Shown: in pieces, positions 1-64,000 of the stretch
Layout of the letters: each line of letters opens with the position of its first letter
How positions within the stretch are numbered: position 1 is the first letter of the stretch
From: an uncultured Acidobacteriota bacterium
GTDB taxonomy: Bacteria; Acidobacteriota; Terriglobia; UBA7540
DNA: 64,000 nt
Assembly (NCBI GenBank): GCA_963804995.1
Contig: CAWDSK010000003.1
Coordinates: 736,001 to 800,000, forward strand
Direction of reading: 5' to 3'
Made by a program: the position numbers and the translations under genes
The notes under the pieces: model-generated
The model's database searches: none
What the model was told of the DNA's origin: nothing
Seen by the model: only the letters and a program-made list of their open reading frames with translations

Positions 1-308
1 TAAGACCTCTTCATGATCGACTGATAGTGAAGCGGGTGGAAGAGAAAGAATCCATCAAAGGTGGGATCATCATCCCCGACTCGGCAAAAGAGAAGCCGCA
101 GGAGGGCGAGGTGATCGCTGCCGGGAACGGCAAGAAGACGGAAGACGGGAAGATCATCCCCTTGGACGTTAAGGCGGGCGATCGCATCCTGTTTGGCAAA
201 TACTCCGGCACGGAAATCAAGATCGACAACCACGAGTACCTGATCTTGCGCGAGGAAGAAGTGCTGGGAGTGATTGAGCACGCGAAGGCTGCGACCGGAA
301 AGAAGTAA
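1..308 (+). CDS. groES: co-chaperonin GroES, copy 1 (5' end truncated by window edge)
   Basis: Frame open from position 3: [45 protein letters not shown]. Confidence 0.97.
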
Positions 309-408
309 GTGCGGCCGGGAATTTGCCGCGGCGATTCGTGCTGGGAAGCGCCGGCGGCGCTGCGGTAGCGAAATTGAAATCATAAACTCCGCCATCCTGA
401 TGCACTAA

Positions 409-2133
<1,725 letters not shown>

Positions 2134-8405: not shown

Positions 8406-10322
8406 ATGTCCGCGTCAGGAGGGAACGACCGGTCCGGCCAGGCCCTGGGCATGAACCAGCGGATTTGCCGCCGGGATTTCTTGAATTCCACCCTGCTGGC
8501 TTCCGGCAGCTTGTTGCTGGAATCGCTCGCGCCCACCCAACTTCTGGCGCGCGATGATTGGACGGGATACGGCGGCGTCGGCGACTATGCCGATTCCAAT
8601 GGAAATACCCTGGAGGTCATGCGGGCCGGTCATGCCTTCCGCGACCACGTCTTTGACTCACCTCCGGGAGGCACGATCGACACAGGGGAAGTGTTTGATT
8701 GCGTCGTCGTGGGGGGCGGGCTCAGCGGGCTCGCGGCAGCACTCTTCGTGAAGCAGGAAGGAATGAGGTGCCTGGTGCTTGAAAACCATCCCATTTTCGG
8801 CGGCGAAGCCAAGCGCAATGAATTCATCGTCGATGGCAAGCGGCTGGTGGCTCCGCAGGGATCCAACACTTTTACAGCTCCTTTGCCGCAGAGCTTCATG
8901 GCGAAGTTTCACGATTTGATGGGTTTGGATTGGCGTGAATTCCAGTACCAAACGTGGAGCGGTCCCTCGCCGGAGATTCCCTTGGGCCGGAGCTTTGAAG
9001 ATCCGCAAACTCCCTATGGATTTTACTTCGGCGCTAAATTCGGGCAACGGCCCGGAATGTGGCTGATCGATCCGTGGGTCAAAAAGCTACAGGGCGCACC
9101 CCTCGCCGAGTCAACCCGGGTGGAACTCGTGAGGTACGGCGAGCAAGGCGGGGCCGGGCTGATTTCTGCTGCGCCCTTTGTCACGAGGAGCGGACATCCG
9201 GGTGAAAAACTCAGCGATGAGGAAGCGCGCCATTTGGACAGCATGACCATCGAGCAACATCTGATGCAGAGATTCGGCATCAGCCGCGAGACGATTCGCA
9301 CGTTCTTCATGGAACTGGGAAGCTCACACGGCGCCGGGCCGGATGTCGTCTCGGCTTACTGCACGAAGAACTTCCAGCGGGGAGGAGATACGTCGAACAC
9401 GCACTGCTTCCCGGGGGGCAATGCCGGCATGGCGCGCCACATGGTGAAGACGCTGATCCCCCAATCGATCCCCGGCCCCCGCACCTTATCCGCAGTGTGC
9501 CGCAACCCGGTGGATTTTCGCGCGCTCGACCGGGCGGGGCAAGCGGCACGGATTCGCTTGGGGGCAACCGTCGTAGGCGTTGAGCATGAGGGCGACCCCC
9601 AGAAATCTGGTTTCGTGAATGTGACGTACACGCGCCAGGGAAAAGTTTATCGCCTGAAAGCGCGGTCGGTGGTAATGGCCGGCGGGTCGTGGACCACCAA
9701 GCATGTTGTGCGCGACCTGCCTGCGGCACAGCGCGAGGCCTATGATCAGTTTTTCCGTTCGCCCTGTATGGTGGCGAACGTGGCGCTGCGCAACTGGCGC
9801 TTCCTGTATAAACTGGGGATTTCAAGTGCGGAATGGTTCGACGGTTTCGGCAGCTTCGCGGTGATCCACAAGGTCCCCACTTTCTCCCCTGCTGACAAAA
9901 CCCTGGGACCGGATTCCCCCGTGGTCCTGACTCTAAAGGTCCTTTATCACCATTACGGTTTGCCTCTGGAGGAGCAAGGGAACCTGGGCAGGGCGGAGCT
10001 TCTGGCCACATCTTTCCGGGAGTATGAGCGAAAGATTCGCGAGCAATTGACGGAAATGTTTTCGGCGTCGGGCTTCGACGCGACGCGCCATATTGCGGGA
10101 ATCATCCTCAATCGCTGGGGTCACGCTTACTGTAGCCCTCAACCCGGTTTCTTTTTTGGCAAGGAAGGAAAGCCCGCGCCGCGTGACATTCTGCGCTCTG
10201 CCCCGTTTGGAAGAATCGCTTTCGCCAACACCGACTTATCGGGTTCGCCGGCTAACACCACCGCGATCACGGAAGCCCATCGGGCCGTCGGACAGATCCT
10301 TGATAGAGCTAAGAGCGGTTGA
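8406..10322 (+). CDS. Tat-signal FAD-dependent oxidoreductase, spermidine dehydrogenase (SpdH)-like
   Basis: RRDFLN; VVVGGGLSGLAAA; LENHPIFGGEAKRNEF; FPGGNAG; ILNRWGHAY; FGRIAFANTD. Confidence 0.75.
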   Translation: MSASGGNDRSGQALGMNQRICRRDFLNSTLLASGSLLLESLAPTQLLARDDWTGYGGVGDYADSNGNTLEVMRAGHAFRDHVFDSPPGGTIDTGEVFDCVVVGGGLSGLAAALFVKQEGMRCLVLENHPIFGGEAKRNEFIVDGKRLVAPQGSNTFTAPLPQSFMAKFHDLMGLDWREFQYQTWSGPSPEIPLGRSFEDPQTPYGFYFGAKFGQRPGMWLIDPWVKKLQGAPLAESTRVELVRYGEQGGAGLISAAPFVTRSGHPGEKLSDEEARHLDSMTIEQHLMQRFGISRETIRTFFMELGSSHGAGPDVVSAYCTKNFQRGGDTSNTHCFPGGNAGMARHMVKTLIPQSIPGPRTLSAVCRNPVDFRALDRAGQAARIRLGATVVGVEHEGDPQKSGFVNVTYTRQGKVYRLKARSVVMAGGSWTTKHVVRDLPAAQREAYDQFFRSPCMVANVALRNWRFLYKLGISSAEWFDGFGSFAVIHKVPTFSPADKTLGPDSPVVLTLKVLYHHYGLPLEEQGNLGRAELLATSFREYERKIREQLTEMFSASGFDATRHIAGIILNRWGHAYCSPQPGFFFGKEGKPAPRDILRSAPFGRIAFANTDLSGSPANTTAITEAHRAVGQILDRAKSG

Positions 10323-10918: not shown

Positions 10919-11226
10919 CTTGAGTAGATGAACACGATTTTGCCGGGCTCGGGGGTGTCTTCGAGGTCGAGGCCCGTCGCCGCGGCGACTTTACGAAATG
11001 GTCGCGAATGGCTTGGGCGGCGCTGAGTGTGAAGGCTTCGCGGTAGACCTGTCCCGATGTTCTATATCGGGATCAGGCCGTCACCCAGATCCGCTACGAG
11101 GTGGTTTTGGAAGAACGGGCCGCGAGGGTCTTTGGCTGTGCCTATGCACCACTCGCCCATACCGCCACCGAATTTCTGGATGTGTCCCTGGATGTCCGCA
11201 ATAATCTCTGCGCGATTGCTGGGCAT
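10919..11226 (-). pseudogene. disrupted paralog of the hypothetical gene at 40459-40803
   Basis: MPSNRAEIIADIQGHIQKFGG..GTAKDPRGPFFQNHLVADLGDGL; 25-nt palindromic insertion at 11048-11072 shifts the frame; second palindrome at 10976-10989. Confidence 0.85.
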
Positions 11227-11267
11227 AGTTGTTACCCTCCTCGTACCGACGAACTCGATTTGCACTA

Positions 11268-11299
11268 AATCGCAGGGCTACGCTCGCCCTGCGCCAGCC
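11268..11299 (-). repeat. RAYT-end type REP (single)
   Basis: aatcgcagggctacgctcgccctgcgccagcc, matches the RAYT right end 42118-42149. Confidence 0.85.
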
Positions 11300-11316
11300 G
11301 GCCGCAACCGCCCCCG

Positions 11317-32636: not shown

Positions 32637-32708
32637 AGTAAAGAGAACTTGGCTGCTTCCAGCCCCACTTTGTGTAGGCTGGGGAAGATCACAGCATGGT
32701 AACCGGCG

Positions 32709-32790
32709 GGCTGGCCCAGGGCTGCGCTCGCCCTGTGATTCTGGTGCGATTAGATGACGTGAATCGCCCCGACGAGTCGGGGCGCCAGCC
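32709..32790. repeat. RAYT-end REP doublet whose second hairpin is replaced by CCCCGACGAGTCGGGG
   Basis: ggctggcccagggc..gattctggtgcgattagatgacgtgaatcgc..gcgccagcc. Confidence 0.85.
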
Positions 32791-33032
32791 CACCTCTCCG
32801 GTAAACCGAAAAACCAGGAGTCCGCCTAACTGCCTTCCATGGATAGAGGCTTGGGCGAACGGTCGTTGCTAAGTTAAGAAGCGCGATCGAGCACCCTGAG
32901 GGTCTTATCGATTCCAGTACTCAACCGCAAGCTTCCAAGCCGCTCGGTGACTTCAGCGATTAAAAGAAAACGCCCATCGTGTTAAGGGCCGCGGAGGAGG
33001 ACTGAAATACGCCCACCTCCGCGCTACCCCGC

Positions 33033-37294: not shown

Positions 37295-37508
37295 ATCGGG
37301 ATGGTGGGTAGCCACGGAGTCGCCGCGGCTGAAAGTCCGCCAATCTTAATGGTGGACGACCCCTTCTGTCCGTGAACTTTTCTCATGTCCGCGGGTGGCG
37401 CATACGGCCCGACGCACTTTGTCCGGATGTATGCGGCCTTGATGCACCAAGTGAGGTGATCACATACATGCCAAAACGCGTCAGGTATCCGTCAGCCGAC
37501 GGATTCCA

Positions 37509-37558
37509 GTGCGGCCTTTCACTTCGTGTTCGCGACAAGAAATATCGTATCGCTGCTG
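37509..37558 (+). repeat. 50-bp direct repeat (second copy 38405-38454), probable Y1/RAYT 5' remnants
   Basis: 44/50 identical by manual alignment; translates FHFVFATRNIV. Confidence 0.6.
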
Positions 37559-37624
37559 GAATTTGGGAAGATCCGCGGAGGAATCCGCCGGCTGGCGGAT
37601 ACCTCGAAGCTACCGGCTTACGGC

Positions 37625-38037
37625 TCAGGGAATCAGCTTAAGGTGTGGGAAACGGCGGAAGTCCTTCTTGTTGAAGGTGGCCAACACCGGGGTTTTGGTT
37701 TCCTCGGCCAGAGCGACAAGATAGGCGTCCACGATTTCGATGTTGTGGGCGCGGTAAATCTCGATACACCGCGAAACCACCCGCGGCTCAAGCGCCGTCA
37801 CGCCCGGAAGTTCTCGAGGAGGGCCTCGAGCAAGCCCGCGATGTATTCCCGGCTGGCCCGGTAGAACGATTCCAAGGTCCAGACGACTTGGGCGATCACC
37901 AGGCTGGGGACGAGCAAGCGCAGGGCGCCCTCGCCCGCCTGCTCAAAAAGCCGTAGCGCCTGCCGCCGATGGGACGGATCATCTCCGAGAGCGTGGCGCA
38001 AAATTACATTGGTGTCCAGCAAGACTTCTTCAACCAT
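37625..38037 (-). pseudogene. vapC: VapC PIN toxin with a frameshift near 37810
   Basis: LLDTNVILR..VVWTLES..ALLE, then shifted LPGV..IVDAYLVALA..ATFNKKDF..LIP*. Confidence 0.8.
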
Positions 38038-38290
38038 GGGCAAGCTCCCGCGCCGTCCTCGCGGCAACCGCTTTCTTCACGCGACGCCGGACTTCCGCGT
38101 CCGAAAGCCCCGGCTGCGGAGAACGCAAAGTTCCGGCCCAATGCACGATGGTCTTCCGCACCGGGCGCACCTTGATGCCGTCTGCCTCCTCTTCAAAGGC
38201 CACCCGGCTGCCCGCCCCCAGATTAAATCGCCGGCGCAATTCCTGCGGCAGCGTCACCTGCCCCTTGACGGTCAGGCGTGAGGTTTTCAT
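38030..38290 (-). CDS. AbrB/MazE family antitoxin
   Basis: SRLTVKGQVTLPQELRRRFNLGAGSRVAF; GTATTAC repeats upstream (38313-38340). Confidence 0.88.
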   Translation of the reverse strand: MKTSRLTVKGQVTLPQELRRRFNLGAGSRVAFEEEADGIKVRPVRKTIVHWAGTLRSPQPGLSDAEVRRRVKKAVAARTARELAHG

Positions 38291-38532
38291 ACACATTTTC
38301 CTCCAGGCTTCGGTATTACCATATCACAAAGAAGTATTACTATCCATCGGTGGTGGCAGCGCGAAGCAGCGGGCAGCGCACAGCTATGCGTATTTTGCGT
38401 TCCGGTGCGGTTTTTCACTTCGTGTTTGCGACCAGAAACATCGTAACGCTGCTGAGAAAACCGAGCCCCTTCGGGGCTCAAAAGTCAAAACTCCTGTTGC
38501 CAGCTACTCAACGGAGAACACCCCGACAGCCG

Positions 38533-38603
38533 GGCTGGCACAGGACGAGCGCAGCCCTCCGATTCTGGTGCGATTAGATGACGTGAAGCGCAGAGCTGCG
38601 CTC
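38533..38603. repeat. RAYT-end REP doublet (degenerate)
   Basis: ggctggcacaggacgagcgcagccctccgattctggtgcgattagatgacgtgaagcgcagagctgcgctc. Confidence 0.85.
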
Positions 38604-38642
38604 TCATCCCGCCCGTCCGTGTCTGATAGTCAAAAGCCTCTT

Positions 38643-38921
38643 CTACACCAGCTCGATCGATACCCGTCGCCCCACCATGGCTGCTGCCCGCTGCAGGCTG
38701 GAAAGCGTGATGTCGTTTTTGGGATCGAGCAGACGGTCAACCTGGGTCCGGCTCGTCTTAAGCAGCGCCGCCATCCGCGACTTGGATATTTTCTTTTTCT
38801 TCATGGCCTGGGCGAGCTGCCACGCCACCACCTCCTTAATGGCCTGAGCTTGCGCCTCTTCAAAGATGCCTTCCTCCCTGAGAAAATTATCGAGGCTCGA
38901 ACCCATATGTTTCTTGCTCAT
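38643..38921 (-). CDS. XRE/HigA-like antitoxin, orphan (no adjacent RelE-type toxin)
   Basis: HMGSSLDNFLREEG..KEVVAWQL..SKSRMA..TSRTQVDRLLDP..TLSSLQRAA. Confidence 0.85.
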   Translation of the reverse strand: MSKKHMGSSLDNFLREEGIFEEAQAQAIKEVVAWQLAQAMKKKKISKSRMAALLKTSRTQVDRLLDPKNDITLSSLQRAAAMVGRRVSIELV

Positions 38922-38994
38922 GGCTCTAACTCCTTATGGATCAGTGTACCTTATAATGTACAGGCGAGCAAGCTCATTAACCTAAAGCTGGGCC

Positions 38995-39075
38995 GGTTGG
39001 CGCAGGGCGAGCGTAGCCCTGCGATTCTGGTGCGTTTAGATGACCTGAAGCGCAGAGCTGCGCTCCGCGCCAGCC
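38995..39075. repeat. RAYT-end REP doublet
   Basis: ggttggcgcagggcgagcgtagccctgcgatt..gcgcagagctgcgctccgcgccagcc. Confidence 0.9.
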
Positions 39076-39145
39076 CGCCTCTGCTACCCTGCTCCGAAAA
39101 ACTGCGCTAGAACCAGGGGGAATAGAAGCGTAGAATAGTGGGGTT

Positions 39146-39628
39146 ATGTCCTTTAAAGTTTTCTTGAGTCACAGCCTCGATCCTGCCGAGCAAGCGCTGG
39201 CTTGGCGGTTGCAAACCCTGGCGGCTGCACACGGCATTGAGATGTACGTGCCACGCCGCGGGTTTACGTTTCCTTCGAGAATGATTGGCGCGGGCGGCGT
39301 TGAGAAGGCCATTGATCGCGCGGACTGTGTTTTGGCGATTATCACTGCGGAAGCGAATGCGAGCGTCCAGAAAGAGCTTAAATATGCTCTCGCAAAACGA
39401 AAGCTTGTAATCCCCATTGTGCACTCGGAAGTGCCGAGCAATGGCCTCGTTGCGCAATTTCCCCGTGTCTTCACATTCTCGCCAGGGGACAATCCGGGAA
39501 AGGTTGAGGCGGAAGTTGTCGAATTCCTGCAACAGCAACACCTCAGTAAGGGAAAACGGCAAGCAGCCGGAGCCCTTGTCGCAGCGGGCCTCGCCTTGCT
39601 TCTACTCTTCTCACTTAGCGAAAAATAG
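39146..39628 (+). CDS. TIR-domain protein with C-terminal hydrophobic segment
   Basis: KVFLSHS, AIDRADCVLAIIT, SVQKELKYA (candidate catalytic Glu), KLVIPIV; C-terminal GALVAAGLALLLLFSL. Confidence 0.82.
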   Translation: MSFKVFLSHSLDPAEQALAWRLQTLAAAHGIEMYVPRRGFTFPSRMIGAGGVEKAIDRADCVLAIITAEANASVQKELKYALAKRKLVIPIVHSEVPSNGLVAQFPRVFTFSPGDNPGKVEAEVVEFLQQQHLSKGKRQAAGALVAAGLALLLLFSLSEK

Positions 39629-40122
39629 TGCGTATTGCCGTCGTAGACAGTTCCCCGCTCATTTACCTCACGCACCTCGGCCTCGCCGCAGAGCTATCCA
39701 GGTTTTTCGATGTCGTTTATGTCCCGCGAGTAGTTCATGAGGAAGTGAACAGGAAGGGCCGATTTCGGTATCGCCTTAAGAAACTGTACCAATCCGGCTG
39801 CTTTCTAAGATGCATGGCAGCGGACAGGACAAATGTCCGCTTACTGATGGCTCAATTACACGAAGGCGAGTCTGAGGCTCTTGTTCAAGCGGAGGAAAAG
39901 GCCGCTGAGTTCTTCATCGGTGATGAAAAGGATGCACGTGAGATTGGCAGGCTCAAGGGATTTAAACCTGTGGGAACAGTCCGCCTCCTGGCGCGACTGC
40001 ACCTTGAGGGTCGAGCCACGGATCCCCTAGCCTTGGTGCGAAAGCTCCGTCGAGACCTCAACTTCCGAGCTACTGAGACCGTAGTGAACGAAGCAATTGC
40101 GATGGCTTCCCAACCCATCTGA
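39628..40122 (+). CDS. DUF3368/COG2405-like PIN-domain protein
   Basis: VVDSSPLIYL, VYVPRVVHEE, LHEGESEAL, IGDEKDAR, GTVRLL; GTG overlaps the TIR stop. Confidence 0.82.
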   Translation: MRIAVVDSSPLIYLTHLGLAAELSRFFDVVYVPRVVHEEVNRKGRFRYRLKKLYQSGCFLRCMAADRTNVRLLMAQLHEGESEALVQAEEKAAEFFIGDEKDAREIGRLKGFKPVGTVRLLARLHLEGRATDPLALVRKLRRDLNFRATETVVNEAIAMASQPI

Positions 40123-40154
40123 AAGAGGCTTACACCGAGCAGGCGGTCACGGAC

Positions 40155-40235
40155 GGCTGGCGCAGGGCGAGCGCAGCCCTGCGATTCTGGTGCGATTAGA
40201 TGACGTGAATCGCAGACCTGCGCTATGCGCCAGCC
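40155..40235. repeat. RAYT-end REP doublet (best-conserved copy)
   Basis: ggctggcgcagggcgagcgcagccctgcgattctggtgcgattagatgacgtgaatcgcagacctgcgctatgcgccagcc. Confidence 0.92.
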
Positions 40236-40458
40236 CGCCAGTTTCCGAACAGGCAACGATATAGGATACCCTCCGGCGTCTCAGAGGATCCGTGTTGGAC
40301 GAGAGCCATTTTCCGTGATGGTGACTTTTCAGGCGGGATCCGACGTAGCAGTGAAACCTCGTGAGCGGCCACAACTTGCAGTTGGTCGAGCGAAGGAGTT
40401 TGTCGGCGAACAATCGGAGAGCACATTCCGAGTGGGCGGACTTGAAGGAGTTGGGCGA

Positions 40459-40803
40459 CTACGCGGCGCTTCGGCGGAATACGGGATGGTCTTGGTGAAT
40501 CTGGGGATGCGCGGGGGCGGTTTTCCGATAAATGAACACGATTTTACCGGGCTCGGCGGCGTCTTCGAGATCGAGTTCGAGTCCGCAGTCATTTACGAAA
40601 TGGTCGCGAATGGCTTGGGCGGCGCTGAGTGTGAACGCTTCACGGTAGATTAGGCCATCACCCAGGTCCGCTACGAGGTGGTTTTGGAAAAACGGCCCGC
40701 GCGGGTCTTTGGCTGTGCCCACGCACCAGTCGCTCGGACTGCCACCGAATTTCTGAATGTGCTGTTCGATCTCAGCGATAATCTCGCCGCGATTGCTGGG
40801 CAT
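40459..40803 (-). CDS. hypothetical protein (intact paralog of 10919-11226)
   Basis: MPSNRGEIIAEIEQHIQKFGG..WCVGTAKDP..KIVFIYRK; RBS GGGAGAGG; degenerate REP at 40846-40877 upstream. Confidence 0.75.
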   Translation of the reverse strand: MPSNRGEIIAEIEQHIQKFGGSPSDWCVGTAKDPRGPFFQNHLVADLGDGLIYREAFTLSAAQAIRDHFVNDCGLELDLEDAAEPGKIVFIYRKTAPAHPQIHQDHPVFRRSAA

Positions 40804-40887
40804 GGTTGTGGCCCTCTCCCGGACCAACTGACTTGATTTGCCCTAAGTCGCAAAACTGGGCTCGTTCTGCGCCAGCCGGCTACTCGA

Positions 40888-41388
40888 TCACATCTTTATG
40901 GGCGGCGAGTATATTATTACCTCGCCTGGCCTGTCGTAAGGAGGGAATGCGCCGTAGAGTTCCCGCTTGATGACTCTTTTCGCGTCGAAGTAGATATGAA
41001 CCGAGTATGTGTCGGCGCCGTGGGCCCCTCCGGTCACAAGCATAAAGGTTCCCTTTTCCAATGTTAGCTGTGCTCCTCTCACATTGAAAAGGGTCGCATA
41101 GGCATCCCAGGGAACCGCCAGTGCCTTCCCATCGACAACAATGGTCATGTCCTCAACAAAGGAGGCCTCATTGTAGCCGTCCTTTAGAAACACGGGAAAA
41201 CCTGGATCGGACTTGTTCAGCAGGATGGTGCGGAATGTAATCTGTACCTTCTTGCCTCCCAGCACTGCCTGCAGAGAAGCTTCGCCCGACTTTGGGATCT
41301 TCACTTCGTCCGGCGCAGCATGGGAAAAACCGGTAGCCAACAAACAGGAAATGACAACCGTAAGCAGAGTACGCGCCGGATAGTTCAT
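40888..41388 (-). CDS. secreted hypothetical protein
   Basis: Signal peptide MNYPARTLLTVVISCLLATGFSHA; GGAGGT RBS. Confidence 0.7.
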   Translation of the reverse strand: MNYPARTLLTVVISCLLATGFSHAAPDEVKIPKSGEASLQAVLGGKKVQITFRTILLNKSDPGFPVFLKDGYNEASFVEDMTIVVDGKALAVPWDAYATLFNVRGAQLTLEKGTFMLVTGGAHGADTYSVHIYFDAKRVIKRELYGAFPPYDRPGEVIIYSPPIKM

Positions 41389-41490
41389 TTCACCACCTCC
41401 AAATCACGAATTCCACTGTTTCCGATGGACTCTAAAACGTTCAAAGGCTCAACTATGCAACCCTGCGAATCACCCATTGTTTTAAAGGCG

Positions 41491-42150
41491 GGCTGGCGCA
41501 GAGCGAGCTCAGCTCTGCGATTCACGTCTCTGACCCTACCCGCCGATATAATTATTATGCCGATCTATGGACGCCATTTCGAGCCCGGCCAGTTGCAGTT
41601 CATCACCACCAGCACTTATCGCCGCAGCCGGCTATTTACCTGTCAGCGCTTCTGCTGGACCTTTGTCGAAACTCTCCGCCAAGTCCGCCAGGAGACCGGA
41701 TTCCTCCTGATTGGCTGGGTGTTAATGCCGGAACACTTTCACCTGCTCCTTAAACCCCAACCCGCCGAGCAAATCGTCCGCTTCATGCAGGAGCTCAAGA
41801 AGCGATCCGCGCAGCAGATTATCGCCGCCCTTGCCAGGAATCAACACCAGCCCACGTGCCGCACCACGCTGGCCCGGCTGCAACTGCCCCCCACCGTCCA
41901 CAGTGATTCGCACTATCGGCTGTGGCAGAGGCGCTATGTCCCGTTTAACGTTTTCACGGAGAAAAACCGCTTGCAGAAGCTCAACTACATGCACGGCAAT
42001 CCGGTAAAGAGAAGGCTGGTGAGCTCTCCCGATCAATGGCCCTGGTCAAGCTTTCGATTCTATTATCTGAATGATTCGTCCGTCTTGAGCATGGACCGGT
42101 TGAGTTGACTCGCACTAAGTCGCAGGGCTGCGCTCGCCCTGCGCCAGCCA
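41491..42150 (+). mobile_element. RAYT element bounded by inverted GGCTGGCGCA hairpin REPs
   Basis: Left ggctggcgcagagcgagctcagctctgcga; right tcgcagggctgcgctcgccctgcgccagcc. Confidence 0.85.
41557..42108 (+). CDS. rayT: REP-associated tyrosine transposase (Y1 HUH)
   Basis: FITTSTYRR, WVLMPEHFHLL (HUH), LWQRRY, YMHGNPVKRRLV..WPWSS; TATAAT 4 nt before ATG. Confidence 0.92.
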   Translation: MPIYGRHFEPGQLQFITTSTYRRSRLFTCQRFCWTFVETLRQVRQETGFLLIGWVLMPEHFHLLLKPQPAEQIVRFMQELKKRSAQQIIAALARNQHQPTCRTTLARLQLPPTVHSDSHYRLWQRRYVPFNVFTEKNRLQKLNYMHGNPVKRRLVSSPDQWPWSSFRFYYLNDSSVLSMDRLS

Positions 42151-42155
42151 GCCCG

Positions 42156-44346
42156 TATCGTTATCGTCGGATTCGAGAAGGAGGATGACGAAATTTAGTG
42201 GGGGGGGTGAAAGCACCGGGGCGTCCGGTAGGAGCGAATGGAGACGCCGCAGGGCCGCCAGAGCAAGTCAAAAGGCAAAGCGCAAAAGGCAAAAGTCAAA
42301 AGTGAGGCGTCCCCTCCTGAGAATCCCGCCCCCCGCGCAGTGCCCCCGACACTCCCCCCTATCGTTATCGGCGGGTGGGGCGACGAACGTGAGAGATTTT
42401 GAGACCGTCGAAAACCCTCGGCGAAAATGGGTTGGCTGCGCCGAAGGCGCTTTGGGAGTGCGGCCGCGAAGCTGCCGCTTTGGTGCGAACACGGCCGCGC
42501 CAATCAGGACTTCAGACGCAAGTTGCAACATTCGGATGCAAAATGGGCGGAGAGACCCCTCATCCGGCTTCGTCCCTCCGCCACCTTCTCCCTAGGGAGA
42601 AGGAACGAAGTCGCGGGGCGCGCGATCGCGCGCTGTAAACCCTGGGCGGCCGCGAAGCTGCCGCTTTTCTTTCCGCCCGGCGGGTTGCTGTCCCGGCTGT
42701 GGCGCGCGGCGGGAGCAGAAAGCGGTAGCTCCGCGACCGCACTCCGAAAGCGCGTCGCGCCCTCGAGGCCACGGTGATGAGGGGAAGGTCATCAACCGAT
42801 CGCGAAGGCGATGACACGCCGCGGAAGGTCGCTCCGCCGGTGCCGCCCTCTAGGGAGGTACTACTTCGGGAACGAAAATTTAAGCTCGCGGCCCATTTCG
42901 AAGACGGGCTTCTTGCGGCGCTTGATGAGTGTGGCGTTTTCGGAGAGGGCGGAAACCAGGATGGGCATGGCGATGGTCGAATCGCATTGCACGCTGACCA
43001 TGCTGGCGTCGTGCGCGATTTTCCCCCAGCTTTGAGCTTCTTCGAAGGTGCAGCCGGAAAGCCCGCCAAAGTGCGGTGCGTCAATCACGACCTGAATGGC
43101 ATACTTATGGCCTTCGGTCGATTTGCGCAGGAAGGCCGCGGTGACTTCCGTCTGCTGCACAAAGTTTTTCGGCGTACCTCCTCCAAAATAGACCACGCCG
43201 CAGGGTCGCAAGAGCAGGTCAAAAGGCAAAGCGCAAAGGCAAAAGTGAGGAGTCCCCTCCTGAGAATCCCGCCCCCCGCGCAGTGCCCCCGACACTCCCC
43301 CGTACCGTTATCGGCGGATTCCAGAAGGAGGATGACGAAATTTACTGGGGGGTGAAAGCACCGGGGCGTCCGGCGGGAGCGAATGGACACGCCGCAGGGC
43401 CGCAAGAGCAAGTCAAAAGGCAAAGCGCAAAAGGCAAAAGTCAAAAGTGAGGAGTCCTCGCCTGAGAATCCCGCCCCCCGCGCAGTACCCCCGACACTCC
43501 CCCGTATCGTTATCGGCGGGTGGGGCGACGAACATGAGAGATTTTGGGACCGTCGAAAACCCTCGGCGAAAATGGGTTGGCTGCGCCGAAGGCGCTTTGG
43601 GAGTGCGGCCGCGAAGCTGCCGCTTTGGTGCGAACACGGCCGCGCCAATCAGGACTTCAGACGCAAGTTGCAACATTCGGATGCAAAATGGGCGGAGAGA
43701 CCCCTCATCCGGCTTCGTCCCTCCGCCACCTTCTCCCTAGGGAGAAGGAACGAAGTCGCGGGGCGCGCGATCGCGCGCTGTAAACCCTGGGCGGCCGCGA
43801 AGCTGCCGCTTTTCTTTCCGCCCGGCGGGTTGCTGTCCCGGCTGTGGCGCGCGGCAGGAGCAGAAAGCGGTAGCTCCGCGACCGCACTCCGAAAGCGCGT
43901 TGCGCCCTCGAAGCCACGGTGATGAGGGGAAGGTCATCAACCGATCGCGAAGGCGATGACACGCCGCGGAAGGTCGCTCCGCCGGTGCCGCCCTCTAGGG
44001 AGGTACTACTTCGGGAACGAAAACTTAAGTTCGCGGCCCATCTCGAAGACGGGCTTTTTGCGGCGCTTGATGAGTGTGGCGTTTTCGGAGAGGGCGGAAA
44101 CCAGCATGGGCATGGCGATGGTGGAATCGCATTGCACGCTGACCATGCTGGCGTCGTGGGCGATTTTCCCCCAGCTTTGAGCTTCTTCGAAGGTGCAGCC
44201 GGAAAGCCCGCCAAAGTGCGGTGCGTCAATCACGACCTGAATGGCGTACTTATGGCCTTCGGTCGATTTGCGCAGGAAGGCGGCGGTGACCTCCGTCTGC
44301 TGCACGAAGTTCTTCGGCGTGCCTCCTCCAAAATAGACGACGCCGC
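42156..44346. repeat. tandem duplication, 1145-bp offset (42156-43201 / 43301-44346): repeat mosaic + 3' third of the DHS-like gene
   Basis: Near-identical blocks; ORF-track pairs are offset by 1145. Confidence 0.93.
42861..43201 (-). pseudogene. duplicated 3' fragment of the deoxyhypusine-synthase-like gene
   Basis: GVVYFGGGTPKNF..KFSFPK, 14 nt differences from 44006-44345. Confidence 0.92.
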
Positions 44347-45043
44347 TATTGGGTGAGTCGCTGGCCAGGTGCGCGGTCTCCAGCACATCGCCGATCACAT
44401 CAAAGGTGAACTGGTTTTTGCCCTCATAGCGGTTTTCGGCGATGCCGATGCCGATGGAGGAGTCGCTCACCGCCGGGCAATAGAGGGGGACGCCGGCCTT
44501 GTAGGCGGCGGTCACGATGCCGTCTTCTTTGGCGCGCCGGGAGAGGTCCTTGCCCAACAGGTTCAAGAACTCCCGCGTCGTATAGGGCCGCGACTGGTCA
44601 AGTGTCGCCGCGAAGGCTCCAATCATGGCGTCGGCTTCGCGAAACTCCTCCTCATCGGCCAGGGTGTCATACATGCGGTCAATCAGGTTCTTCTGCAAAT
44701 GGACGTCGTCGATTTTGGGTGAACACTGAAAGTGCAGGCGGCCCAGAGTCTCATGAATGTCGTGGAAGAAATTGGCGCCGGTCGAAACCAGGCAATCAAT
44801 CAGGCGGTTCTTGATCAGATATACCACCAGCCGCCGCATGCCGGCGGGCACCATGGCGCCCGATAGGCCCATCATGATCATCACCCGGTCGCCCAGCATC
44901 TTTTTCCAAATCTGATAGGCAGTGGCCAGGTTGCGGCCCTGGAAGGAAATGCCCTGCATCTTTTCGAGTAATGCCGCGACACTCTTGCCGGCGTCGATCT
45001 TCAAGGGCCGGGTCGGTGTGGAGAGAATTTCGTGTTTGCGCAT
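44006..45043 (-). CDS. deoxyhypusine synthase family protein (SpeY/homospermidine-type)
   Basis: SGAMVPAGM, VSTGAN, YCPAVSDSSIG, GGGTPKNF, GGLSGCTFEEAQSWGK. Confidence 0.92.
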   Translation of the reverse strand: MRKHEILSTPTRPLKIDAGKSVAALLEKMQGISFQGRNLATAYQIWKKMLGDRVMIMMGLSGAMVPAGMRRLVVYLIKNRLIDCLVSTGANFFHDIHETLGRLHFQCSPKIDDVHLQKNLIDRMYDTLADEEEFREADAMIGAFAATLDQSRPYTTREFLNLLGKDLSRRAKEDGIVTAAYKAGVPLYCPAVSDSSIGIGIAENRYEGKNQFTFDVIGDVLETAHLASDSPNSGVVYFGGGTPKNFVQQTEVTAAFLRKSTEGHKYAIQVVIDAPHFGGLSGCTFEEAQSWGKIAHDASMVSVQCDSTIAMPMLVSALSENATLIKRRKKPVFEMGRELKFSFPK

Positions 45044-59665: not shown

Positions 59666-59697
59666 GGCACGGGGCGCCGCAGCGCAGCCGCAAGGAG

Positions 59698-59821
59698 GGC
59701 TGGCGCAGGGCGAGCGCAGCCCTGCGATTTAGTGTGGATCAAGCATGCTCAAGACAGACGAATCATTCGCTGGCTCCGGTGATCGACGTGGATCGCATAG
59801 CTGAGCTCGCTATGCGCCAAC
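59698..59821 (-). mobile_element. non-autonomous RAYT derivative (both ends + last RAYT codons)
   Basis: Reverse complement contains gaatgattcgtctgtcttgagcatg (RAYT NDSSVLSM) + right REP; the other end matches the left REP. Confidence 0.85.
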
Positions 59822-59873
59822 CTGCCAGATTTGACGTTGCCAGGAAATTACAATTGGAATATCAGGAGAAACC

Positions 59874-60904: not shown

Positions 60905-61222
60905 ATGAATTTTAGACCGCTACATGATCGAATTCTGATAAAGCGAATTGAAGAGAAGGAAACGGTGAAGGGCGGAATTATCATTCCGGACACCGCCAAA
61001 GAGAAACCGCAAGAAGGCGAAGTGATCGCCGTCGGAAACGGGAAGATGACCGAAGAGGGGAAGCTTGTTCCCCTGGACGTGAAGGCGGGCGATCGCATTC
61101 TCTTCGGCAAGTACTCCGGCACAGAAATCAAGATCGACAACCAAGAGTATCTGATCTTGAAAGAGGAAGAAGTGCTGGGCGTCCTGGAAGGCAAGGCAGC
61201 CGCCGCGAACAAGAAGAAGTAA
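60905..61222 (+). CDS. groES: co-chaperonin GroES, copy 2
   Basis: [27 protein letters not shown]. Confidence 0.98.
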
Positions 61223-62998
<1,776 letters not shown>

Positions 62999-63860: not shown

Positions 63861-63909
63861 CTTTCAGCGACGGCTCGAAAGATCAGCGCTTCCGGCCAGC
63901 CAGGAGGCT

Positions 63910-64000
63910 GGCCGGCGCAGACTGAGCTTAGTTCCGCGATTCACATCTCTAACCCTGCCCACCGATATTTCTCTTCTGCCGATCTCTGAACGTTATTTCG
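63910..64000 (+). mobile_element. left end of a second, degenerate RAYT element (runs off window)
   Basis: Colinear with 41491-41580 (gcgattcac.tctct.accct.ccc.ccgatat..ccgatct.tg.acg..atttc); ATG changed to CTG. Confidence 0.75.

Follow-up and report, generated by a model that had tools for sequence, protein, structure and literature searches.

Why bacteria keep RAYTs and the REPINs that accompany them is an open question. One answer, suggested in PMC3333891, is that the unit could sequester flanking genes in the way of IS91, ISCR elements and Helitrons; few examples have been given, and Figure S7 of that paper, which shows captured flanking genes, may bear on the novelty of the system described below. 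We found no report of REPIN-delimited toxin-antitoxin (TA) cassette arrays in the full-text literature, a body from which subscription papers are mostly excluded. Here we analyse an array between positions 37482 and 42153 of a 64,000-nucleotide stretch of DNA (the window; C3:736001-800000 of genome G000, 7.55 Mb in 9 contigs and 92% complete) from a genus of peat and soil Acidobacteria. With described REPIN-RAYT systems, or REPtrons, it shares an HUH Y1 enzyme with its own hairpins on either side, inverted doublets that are dispersed and have a 4-nt foot, clusters of these beside the RAYT, and ends that obey the guide rule. It differs from them in one lineage of doublets, R2a, which nearly always occurs with downstream DNA and separates TA modules that are shuffled across the genus. 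R2a is likely a real cassette joint, in rows of TA modules whose order and chromosomal position vary from genome to genome.

Two repeat families build the array. The first, R1, represents the adjacent RAYT's own ends, its short doublet consisting of both arms together with stubs of the leader and tail of the RAYT unit. The second, R2, divides by its core into R2a, a GTAG-foot REPIN doublet of ~145 bp, and R2b, with arms common to both. R1 and R2 alike have the properties by which REPINs are recognised: they are inverted doublets with a 4-nt foot and a hairpin fold (fold z about -4.7 to -4.9 for R1 doublets, two folded), intergenic and dispersed. A preliminary description of the locus, made from its letters, had one and the same RAYT-end repeat bounding every unit, which fails in the presence of two families, and had taken for Y1 remnants what are in fact non-coding R2a copies (no Pfam match at E<=0.1; best E 0.13 against 17 Y1 proteins of G000).

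R2 copies were gathered from 60 regions and 17 pattern-matched loci, with nine and then two duplicates removed; for the comparison of flanks, 41 metagenome loci were added (43 less two duplicates) and identical insertions were collapsed, reducing 78 to 73. An exact degenerate R2 pattern, run against 185,579 species genomes, hit 18 stretches, each in a metagenome-assembled genome recorded as Terriglobia or Acidobacteriota, which places the genus in that group. Below, G### denotes genomes and L### loci from G000, its relatives or metagenomes. The 54 full-length R2a copies had left flanks of 46 types and right flanks of 8, and 46 of the 54 started with AG, while all 19 R2b copies had unique flanks on both sides. 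Precise two-ended movement, as expected of a REPIN, is seen for R2b and nearly so for R1, and not for R2a, which displays the single fixed end and variable far end with captured DNA that characterise IS91/ISCR-type elements. The commonest right flank of R2a (34/54) is a ~75-bp spacer that leads on to the 3' third of a hypothetical gene of 357 aa, whose protein family (L112 678-1748; P0001-P0012) matched nothing in Pfam, NCBIfam or PADLOC; the remaining right flanks are TA modules fused to this spacer/357-aa backbone at differing points. A sharp RAYT-type end, ever-new left neighbours and shared, variable right DNA together argue for one-ended movement with cargo.

The same flanks bear on an explanation by recombination only, in which a RAYT would spread R2a with a fixed tail, and modules would be swapped, duplicated and imported by RecA or by homology-facilitated illegitimate recombination at the repeat of 145-220 bp. 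In its favour is the identical tail that terminates many arrays. Against it stand R2b, which has the same arms and shares no flank in any of its 19 copies, the scarcity of solitary R2a that could serve as anchors (3 right-flank singletons in 54), and single R2a copies with an intact left end that carry vapBC, higBA or phd-PIN at new sites. Although further points in its favour come from the inner joints discussed below, we consider recombination alone fairly unlikely.

Proximity to TA genes sets R2a apart from its sister. A TA gene lay within 400 bp of 54 of 68 R2a copies and at 34 of 44 loci, against 3 of 14 R2b loci (Fisher 3e-4), counts and a value that overstate independence owing to kin genomes and the shared ancestry of copies. 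For comparison, repeat-bearing intergenic regions of G000 have a TA gene within 600 bp in 7% of cases. Neighbouring R2a pairs were direct in 24/24 cases of the genome set, and one inverted pair (L158) occurred in the metagenome set; a metagenome scan with the left arm alone recovered the same modules behind R2a. The cargo keeps its own promoters and lies opposite to R2a in 62 cases and on the same strand in 35. What stands next to what varies: higBA is preceded by vapBC (window, L021), phd-PIN (L032), a DUF433 pair (L049) or a PIN_3 unit (L023), and phd-PIN is followed by vapBC (L027), higBA (L032), DUF433 or others, so that units are reordered at the repeat as in an integron. The same module may stand behind R2a twice in one genome (higBA in G018, vapBC in G005), and vapBC, higBA and phd-PIN each occur at new sites behind a single R2a whose left end is fresh and intact. 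The names higBA, vapBC and phd follow general usage or Pfam labels. G000 holds a second R2a array at C3:1386158-1387300, composed of R2a, a phd-PIN pair and R2a, and this unit is present in several relatives.

A tree of 23 higA rows (L128 was left out as too short) yielded a clade with 99/99 support that comprises nine R2a-linked copies, the window higA and a further copy next to which a spacer remnant survives; none of the 12 remaining rows has R2 nearby. This one linked clade, and identical repeat-module joints at many unrelated sites, contradict for R2a the idea of a hot-spot pile-up, by which REPINs jump over short distances and into one another within dispensable DNA, a strand preference orients them, and no cargo is moved. 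The genome offers occasion for such neighbourhoods: 1690 of its 4271 intergenic regions contain a frequent repeat, and seven Pfam searches found 156 TA genes, of seven families, in 123 loci. Insertion beside other REPINs and REPIN clusters by RAYTs are moreover described in PMC3116915. As an account of the whole array, we nonetheless hold a pile-up to be improbable.

The left half of the window array repeats the order of L021, from the relative G005 (R2a, vapBC, R2a, higBA), and is interleaved with R1. Its features, in window coordinates, are as follows.

37482..37618, plus strand: R2a REPIN copy 1, a GTAG-type doublet (nhmmer 114 bits, model 14-144; fold z -4.9); left foot lost, right end intact, right terminus at 37610-37618
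37625..38037, minus strand: vapC (PIN), split by a frameshift into 79 + 58 aa, with Pfam PIN on each half
38030..38290, minus strand: abrB/mazE-type antitoxin, 86 aa (PF04014, 3e-10; TIGR01439)
38368..38454, plus strand: R2a REPIN copy 2; left arm (GCAG foot) and core present, right arm missing (nhmmer 82 bits, model 1-87)
38529..38617, plus strand: R1 REPIN 1, degenerate, of repeat family D4
38643..38921, minus strand: higA-like HTH antitoxin, orphan (Pfam HTH)
38940-38987: promoter-side remnant of a Gp49-type toxin gene, with the deletion near 38939
38991..39079, plus strand: R1 REPIN 2, repeat family D4
39084..39093, plus strand: right terminus, probably left over from a GTAG-type REPIN; lies between R1 REPIN 2 and the TIR promoter
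39146..39628, plus strand: TIR_2 protein, 160 aa, hydrophobic C-terminus (PF13676, 8e-8)
39628..40122, plus strand: PIN-like protein, 164 aa (PADLOC PDC-S70, 3e-22; PF20698 weak)
40151..40239, plus strand: R1 REPIN 3, repeat family D4
40459..40803, minus strand: hypothetical protein, 114 aa, possibly GIY-YIG-like (no Pfam match; Atlas match 0.95, to a cluster with 14% GIY-YIG members)
40820..40880, minus strand: RAYT 3'-end stub with a single R1 arm (family D11; arm 40846-40880)
40888..41388, minus strand: 166-aa protein, predicted to be secreted from a signal peptide assessed by eye (no Pfam or NCBIfam match)
41487..42153, plus strand: R1 RAYT unit (arm 41487-41522, ORF 41557-42108, arm 42113-42153)
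10925..11303, minus strand: second unit of stub, R1 arm and hypothetical gene, truncated and broken

This inventory bears out much of what had been read from the letters: the gene order and identities, with abrB, PIN, HTH and TIR_2 recovered by Pfam, the common orientation of the three R1 doublets (38529-38617, 38991-39079 and 40151-40239), and the orphan state of the antitoxin, whose Gp49-type toxin gene is found in relatives and gone in the window. An Rfam scan of window 36-45 kb gave no match, and a promoter and terminator scan gave a result at chance level.

Several joints record the order in which the layers arose. The GCAG foot variant of R2a copy 2 also follows vapBC in L023 and L024. 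The AG that closes the higA unit of the window is the start of R2a in the metagenome locus L146, and in the window R1 REPIN 2 starts three bases on; the GTAG-type motif at 39084, first spotted by eye, has a chance probability of ~7e-4 for 15 start positions; and at L133, L162 and L108 R1 sits within R2a elements. An R1 element at the start point of R2a, a surviving GTAG terminus and R1 within R2a elsewhere imply that R1 and its RAYT overprinted an R2a array. As far as such joints can tell, it is likely that the R1 REPINs and the adjacent RAYT unit landed later, on an older R2a array. At L023 (~9870-9900) another GTAG REP takes the place of R2a exactly at the vapC-side joint, which indicates that different REP families use the same site.

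Both toxins of the array have decayed, since vapC is frameshifted in the assembly and higB, the Gp49-type toxin gene, is deleted. The vapC gene measures 413 nt against 411 in the intact relative L022, and is thus 2 nt longer, the protein having 136 aa in relatives; the frameshift in the assembled sequence may be a real change or an assembly error. The loss of higB has occurred independently in L023 as well. The TIR-PIN pair (39146-40122), judged by its domains, is a candidate defence pair. Relatives carry three full copies and one partial copy in defence neighbourhoods, with homology stopping at the gene borders, and none of these four loci has an R1 arm. In L028-L030, the TIR with its hydrophobic tail and the PDC-S70-type PIN lie beside restriction-modification genes. 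The secreted protein has 3 distant homologues among 200 other genomes of the class.

The window RAYT is intact, as had been reported. Its gene at 41557-42108, with R1 arms at 41487 and 42153, scores 111 bits against NF047646 (cut-off 80) and retains the HFH and Y-x-H-x-NP (YMHGNP) motifs; in passing the family cut-off with HUH and Tyr, and in having inverted flanking REPs that are abundant in the genome, it conforms to RAYT / TnpA-REP. A second copy of the unit at C2:467408-468074 has 95% aa identity, the same ends and other neighbours, and relatives carry the unit at further sites. Judged from these copies, the RAYT unit is mobile and multi-copy, and so departs from the single-copy, non-transposing state that defines RAYT / TnpA-REP, unlike the RAYTs of PMC5581495, which are single and domesticated.

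G000 contains 120 R1 arms in 94 elements. Sixteen short R1 doublets had unique left flanks in all cases and unique right flanks in 14, and R1 elements cluster locally: 21 pairs of neighbours stand no more than 2.5 kb apart, where 2.9 were expected (maximum 11 in 2000 shuffles). Five of the 21 close pairs lie in this array, the densest R1 cluster of the genome. Lagging-strand bias is a less probable cause of the common orientation, GC skew being too weak; 25 of 38 arms point one way. A TA gene occurred within 600 bp of 8/94 R1 elements, compared with 124/1690 repeat-bearing regions (7%) and 103/2581 repeat-free regions of G000: R1 is no nearer to TA genes than repeats are in general. Local clustering of this kind, lacking TA enrichment, together with the R1 insertions inside R2a, speaks for a pile-up, which accounts for most of the R1 layer. 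Further R1 copies are found in the window at 32705-32793 and 59691-59831, and a RAYT-like fragment begins at 63900-64000.

The single R1 passenger with good evidence is the hypothetical gene. Four copies in G000 (twice in the window, on C8 and on C2) share the RAYT 3' stub and the arm, the DNA beyond the arm differs among them, and the joint falls after CC; at 40820-40880, stub and arm are joined to the gene's ribosome site in this way. The recurrence of the unit at 10.9-11.3 kb with a different neighbour had been noted correctly. A fifth near-complete copy in G000 is without an R1 arm, an HMM found no R1 arm upstream of the gene at any of the 26 loci mapped in relatives, two of which stop at a contig edge, and the tree of the four R1-linked copies is weak (support 69/85). 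L251 has a degenerate R1-like stretch by eye and L247 an R1 downstream. Several genomes of the genus have this small, possibly GIY-YIG-like gene in multiple copies, with 10-12 matches in three; it often has short tandem-like repeats around it or RAYTs nearby, and may be mobile by itself.

The original proposal for the locus, that the adjacent RAYT and R1 form an integron-like platform which captured every unit in place, would suit the densest R1 cluster of the genome, the fourfold unit of R1 and hypothetical gene with its CC joint, and a second row, at C5:603-609 kb, in which R1 hybrids share one orientation and stand among parDE and higBA. The vapBC and higBA modules are, though, linked to R2a in relatives, the TIR-PIN pair stands free of R1 in all four loci of relatives, the RAYT unit itself moves and is found elsewhere among other genes, and R1 flanks are unique; we therefore regard the proposal as very improbable. 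What survives of it is capture and shuffling at REP-type repeats, mainly for R2a, with the hypothetical gene as the sole passenger shown for R1. The row on C5 (L170) consists of four co-oriented hybrids of an R1 arm and another REPIN, with no RAYT there, and these separate a 169-aa gene, a racemase-like gene, parDE and higBA.

If not the adjacent RAYT, which enzyme would serve R2a? The candidate is a 173-aa Y1 RAYT. By sequence, the R2a arms match a RAYT clade other than that of the adjacent RAYT, exemplified by the RAYT at C2:304788 (NF047646, 113 bits), which is 29% identical to the window RAYT and belongs to a separate clade. Autonomous RAYT units in the clade of C2:304788 have AG-..-GTAG termini, and R2 arm loops occur in several of them (L194, L195, L198 and L202, the last decayed). 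R2-like arms occur on RAYTs of relatives. R1 has a CTGG foot and ends in GG..CC, with GG at 81% and 86% of 64 arms; R2 has a GTAG foot and ends in AG..CT. In PMC8266576, a change of the foot from GTAG to GTGG shifted cleavage to CC, and both the GG..CC ends of R1 and the AG..CT ends of R2 agree with the prediction of this guide rule. G000 has 14 Y1 transposase matches. An HUH enzyme is a putative driver of the shuffling; the adjacent RAYT falls in another clade than RAYTs with R2-like ends, and one test of HUH action was negative.

On balance we lean, with slightly better than even confidence, towards a layered array, in which R2a spread with cargo under a RAYT and by exchange inside the repeat, and R1 with its RAYT came later. 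R2a would move with its downstream DNA through a RAYT acting in trans. A GTAG-clade RAYT would cut with precision at the CT closing the left arm on the lower strand, and loosely on the opposite side, thereby taking downstream DNA along in a one-ended, ISCR-like capture; TnpA-REP cuts far from the REP and exchanges strands in vitro (PMC3333891). Where two direct R2a copies flank a module, exchange inside the repeat could excise or re-sort modules, whether carried out by RecA or by the RAYT through strand transfer at inner CT sites. TA pairs may dominate the cargo because they are small and addictive, and R1 has done likewise on a small scale with the hypothetical gene. The wider proposal is more tentative and, in our judgement, clearly below an even chance: that RAYT-REPIN systems act as an integrase-free, HUH-driven means of capture and shuffling, a REPIN without a precise far end becoming a one-ended vector, and RAYT strand transfer within the repeat assembling and re-sorting rows of TA and defence cassettes.

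At seven joints right of phd-PIN, the left arm keeps its module-linked variant while the right side differs, which points to exchange inside the repeat, by RecA or RAYT. This retention of the left module's variant is also what recombination alone would give, as are the missing AG signature at distal joints and several deletions at short direct repeats (left hairpin loss, higB loss and a core-to-gene fusion). Three further readings did not hold up: far joints seemed by eye, in the spacer, to bear a CT/AG signature, which a scripted test failed to confirm; left-truncated R2a copies, considered as RAYT cuts, are better explained by hairpin loss between short direct repeats; and inactivation of inner feet is weak, as the contrast between inner left arms (intact in 4/17) and outer ones (17/29) rests largely on one inherited variant.

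A number of observations weigh against the layered, RAYT-driven array. Exact R2 arms were absent from all 17 Y1 loci of G000 examined, and the intact member of the C2:304788 clade in G000 has stems that differ from R2. The inner joints look, from their variants, like exchanges inside the repeat, which speaks against a pure HUH mechanism, and an automated junction test showed no excess of AG outside the repeat (3/56 right and 1/37 left ends; background 5.5%), an X-drop version of the test being too strict for use. The spacer of 34/54 right flanks may be part of the element and not cargo. To the dependence among the TA counts stated above is added that the R2a TA list was compiled by hand, with nine loci first found via module matches. 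The window higA is sister to the spacer-joined copies, not within them, and has a different left joint. Sequence analysis revealed no excised circles or activity, and the public runs, each containing at most 10% of the stretch's words, gave no empty versus filled alleles from close strains; four of them showed scattered pieces of relatives only.

The surroundings of the array are themselves repetitive. At window 42152-44350, the deoxyhypusine synthase gene has its 3' end repeated in a tandem duplication of ~1.15 kb (97% over 1050 nt), which sits amid another repeat family; related repeats are found next to the second R2a array, at C3:1387.6-1388.8 kb. The DNA downstream of deoxyhypusine synthase is variable among relatives, and the cargo of the array was found there in 0/10 of them, so that a pre-insertion allele was not recovered from these. 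Diverged copies of a gene region (73-84%) lie at window 3-2080 and 60914-62954, 60.9 kb apart.

With two sister REPINs that share their arms, one of which behaves as a lone element and the other as a carrier of cargo, and with candidate enzymes identified, the idea of capture becomes directly testable. R2a offers a source for part of the very large TA load of these Acidobacteria, with the caveat that G000 holds 7 R2a copies only. If the reading is true, REPINs gain a concrete role in the flow of accessory genes. A short DNA end pulling cargo along by means of a 173-aa HUH enzyme would also have interest as a tool.

How, then, does R2a compare with the known means of moving gene modules? With integrons it shares direct hairpin repeats between units of one or two genes, TA-rich cargo and an order that varies by genome. 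Unlike in integrons, the cargo lies on both strands with its own promoters and the distal joints are imprecise. The absence of IntI noted in the preliminary description is borne out, the best TIGR02249 match in the 92% complete genome reaching 78 bits against a cut-off of 265, with no match on the window stretch; attC boxes (RYYYAAC ... GTTRRRY) were found by pattern, no covariance model being run, in 0/52 full R2 and 0/3 R1 doublets. IS91/ISCR elements resemble R2a in their HUH family, one sharp end, a variable far end and the taking of adjacent genes. They differ in that the end of R2a is a non-autonomous REPIN and its candidate enzyme a 173-aa Y1 RAYT in trans; among the array genes, the Pfam scan revealed no IS91/ISCR transposase, and no dedicated family search was run. 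A composite transposon of two miniature elements would likewise hold a module between direct copies, with inner feet often mutated, whereas many R2a units have one repeat only. The R2a system works like an integron array and like ISCR capture, yet it is neither; it belongs to the REPIN-RAYT systems.

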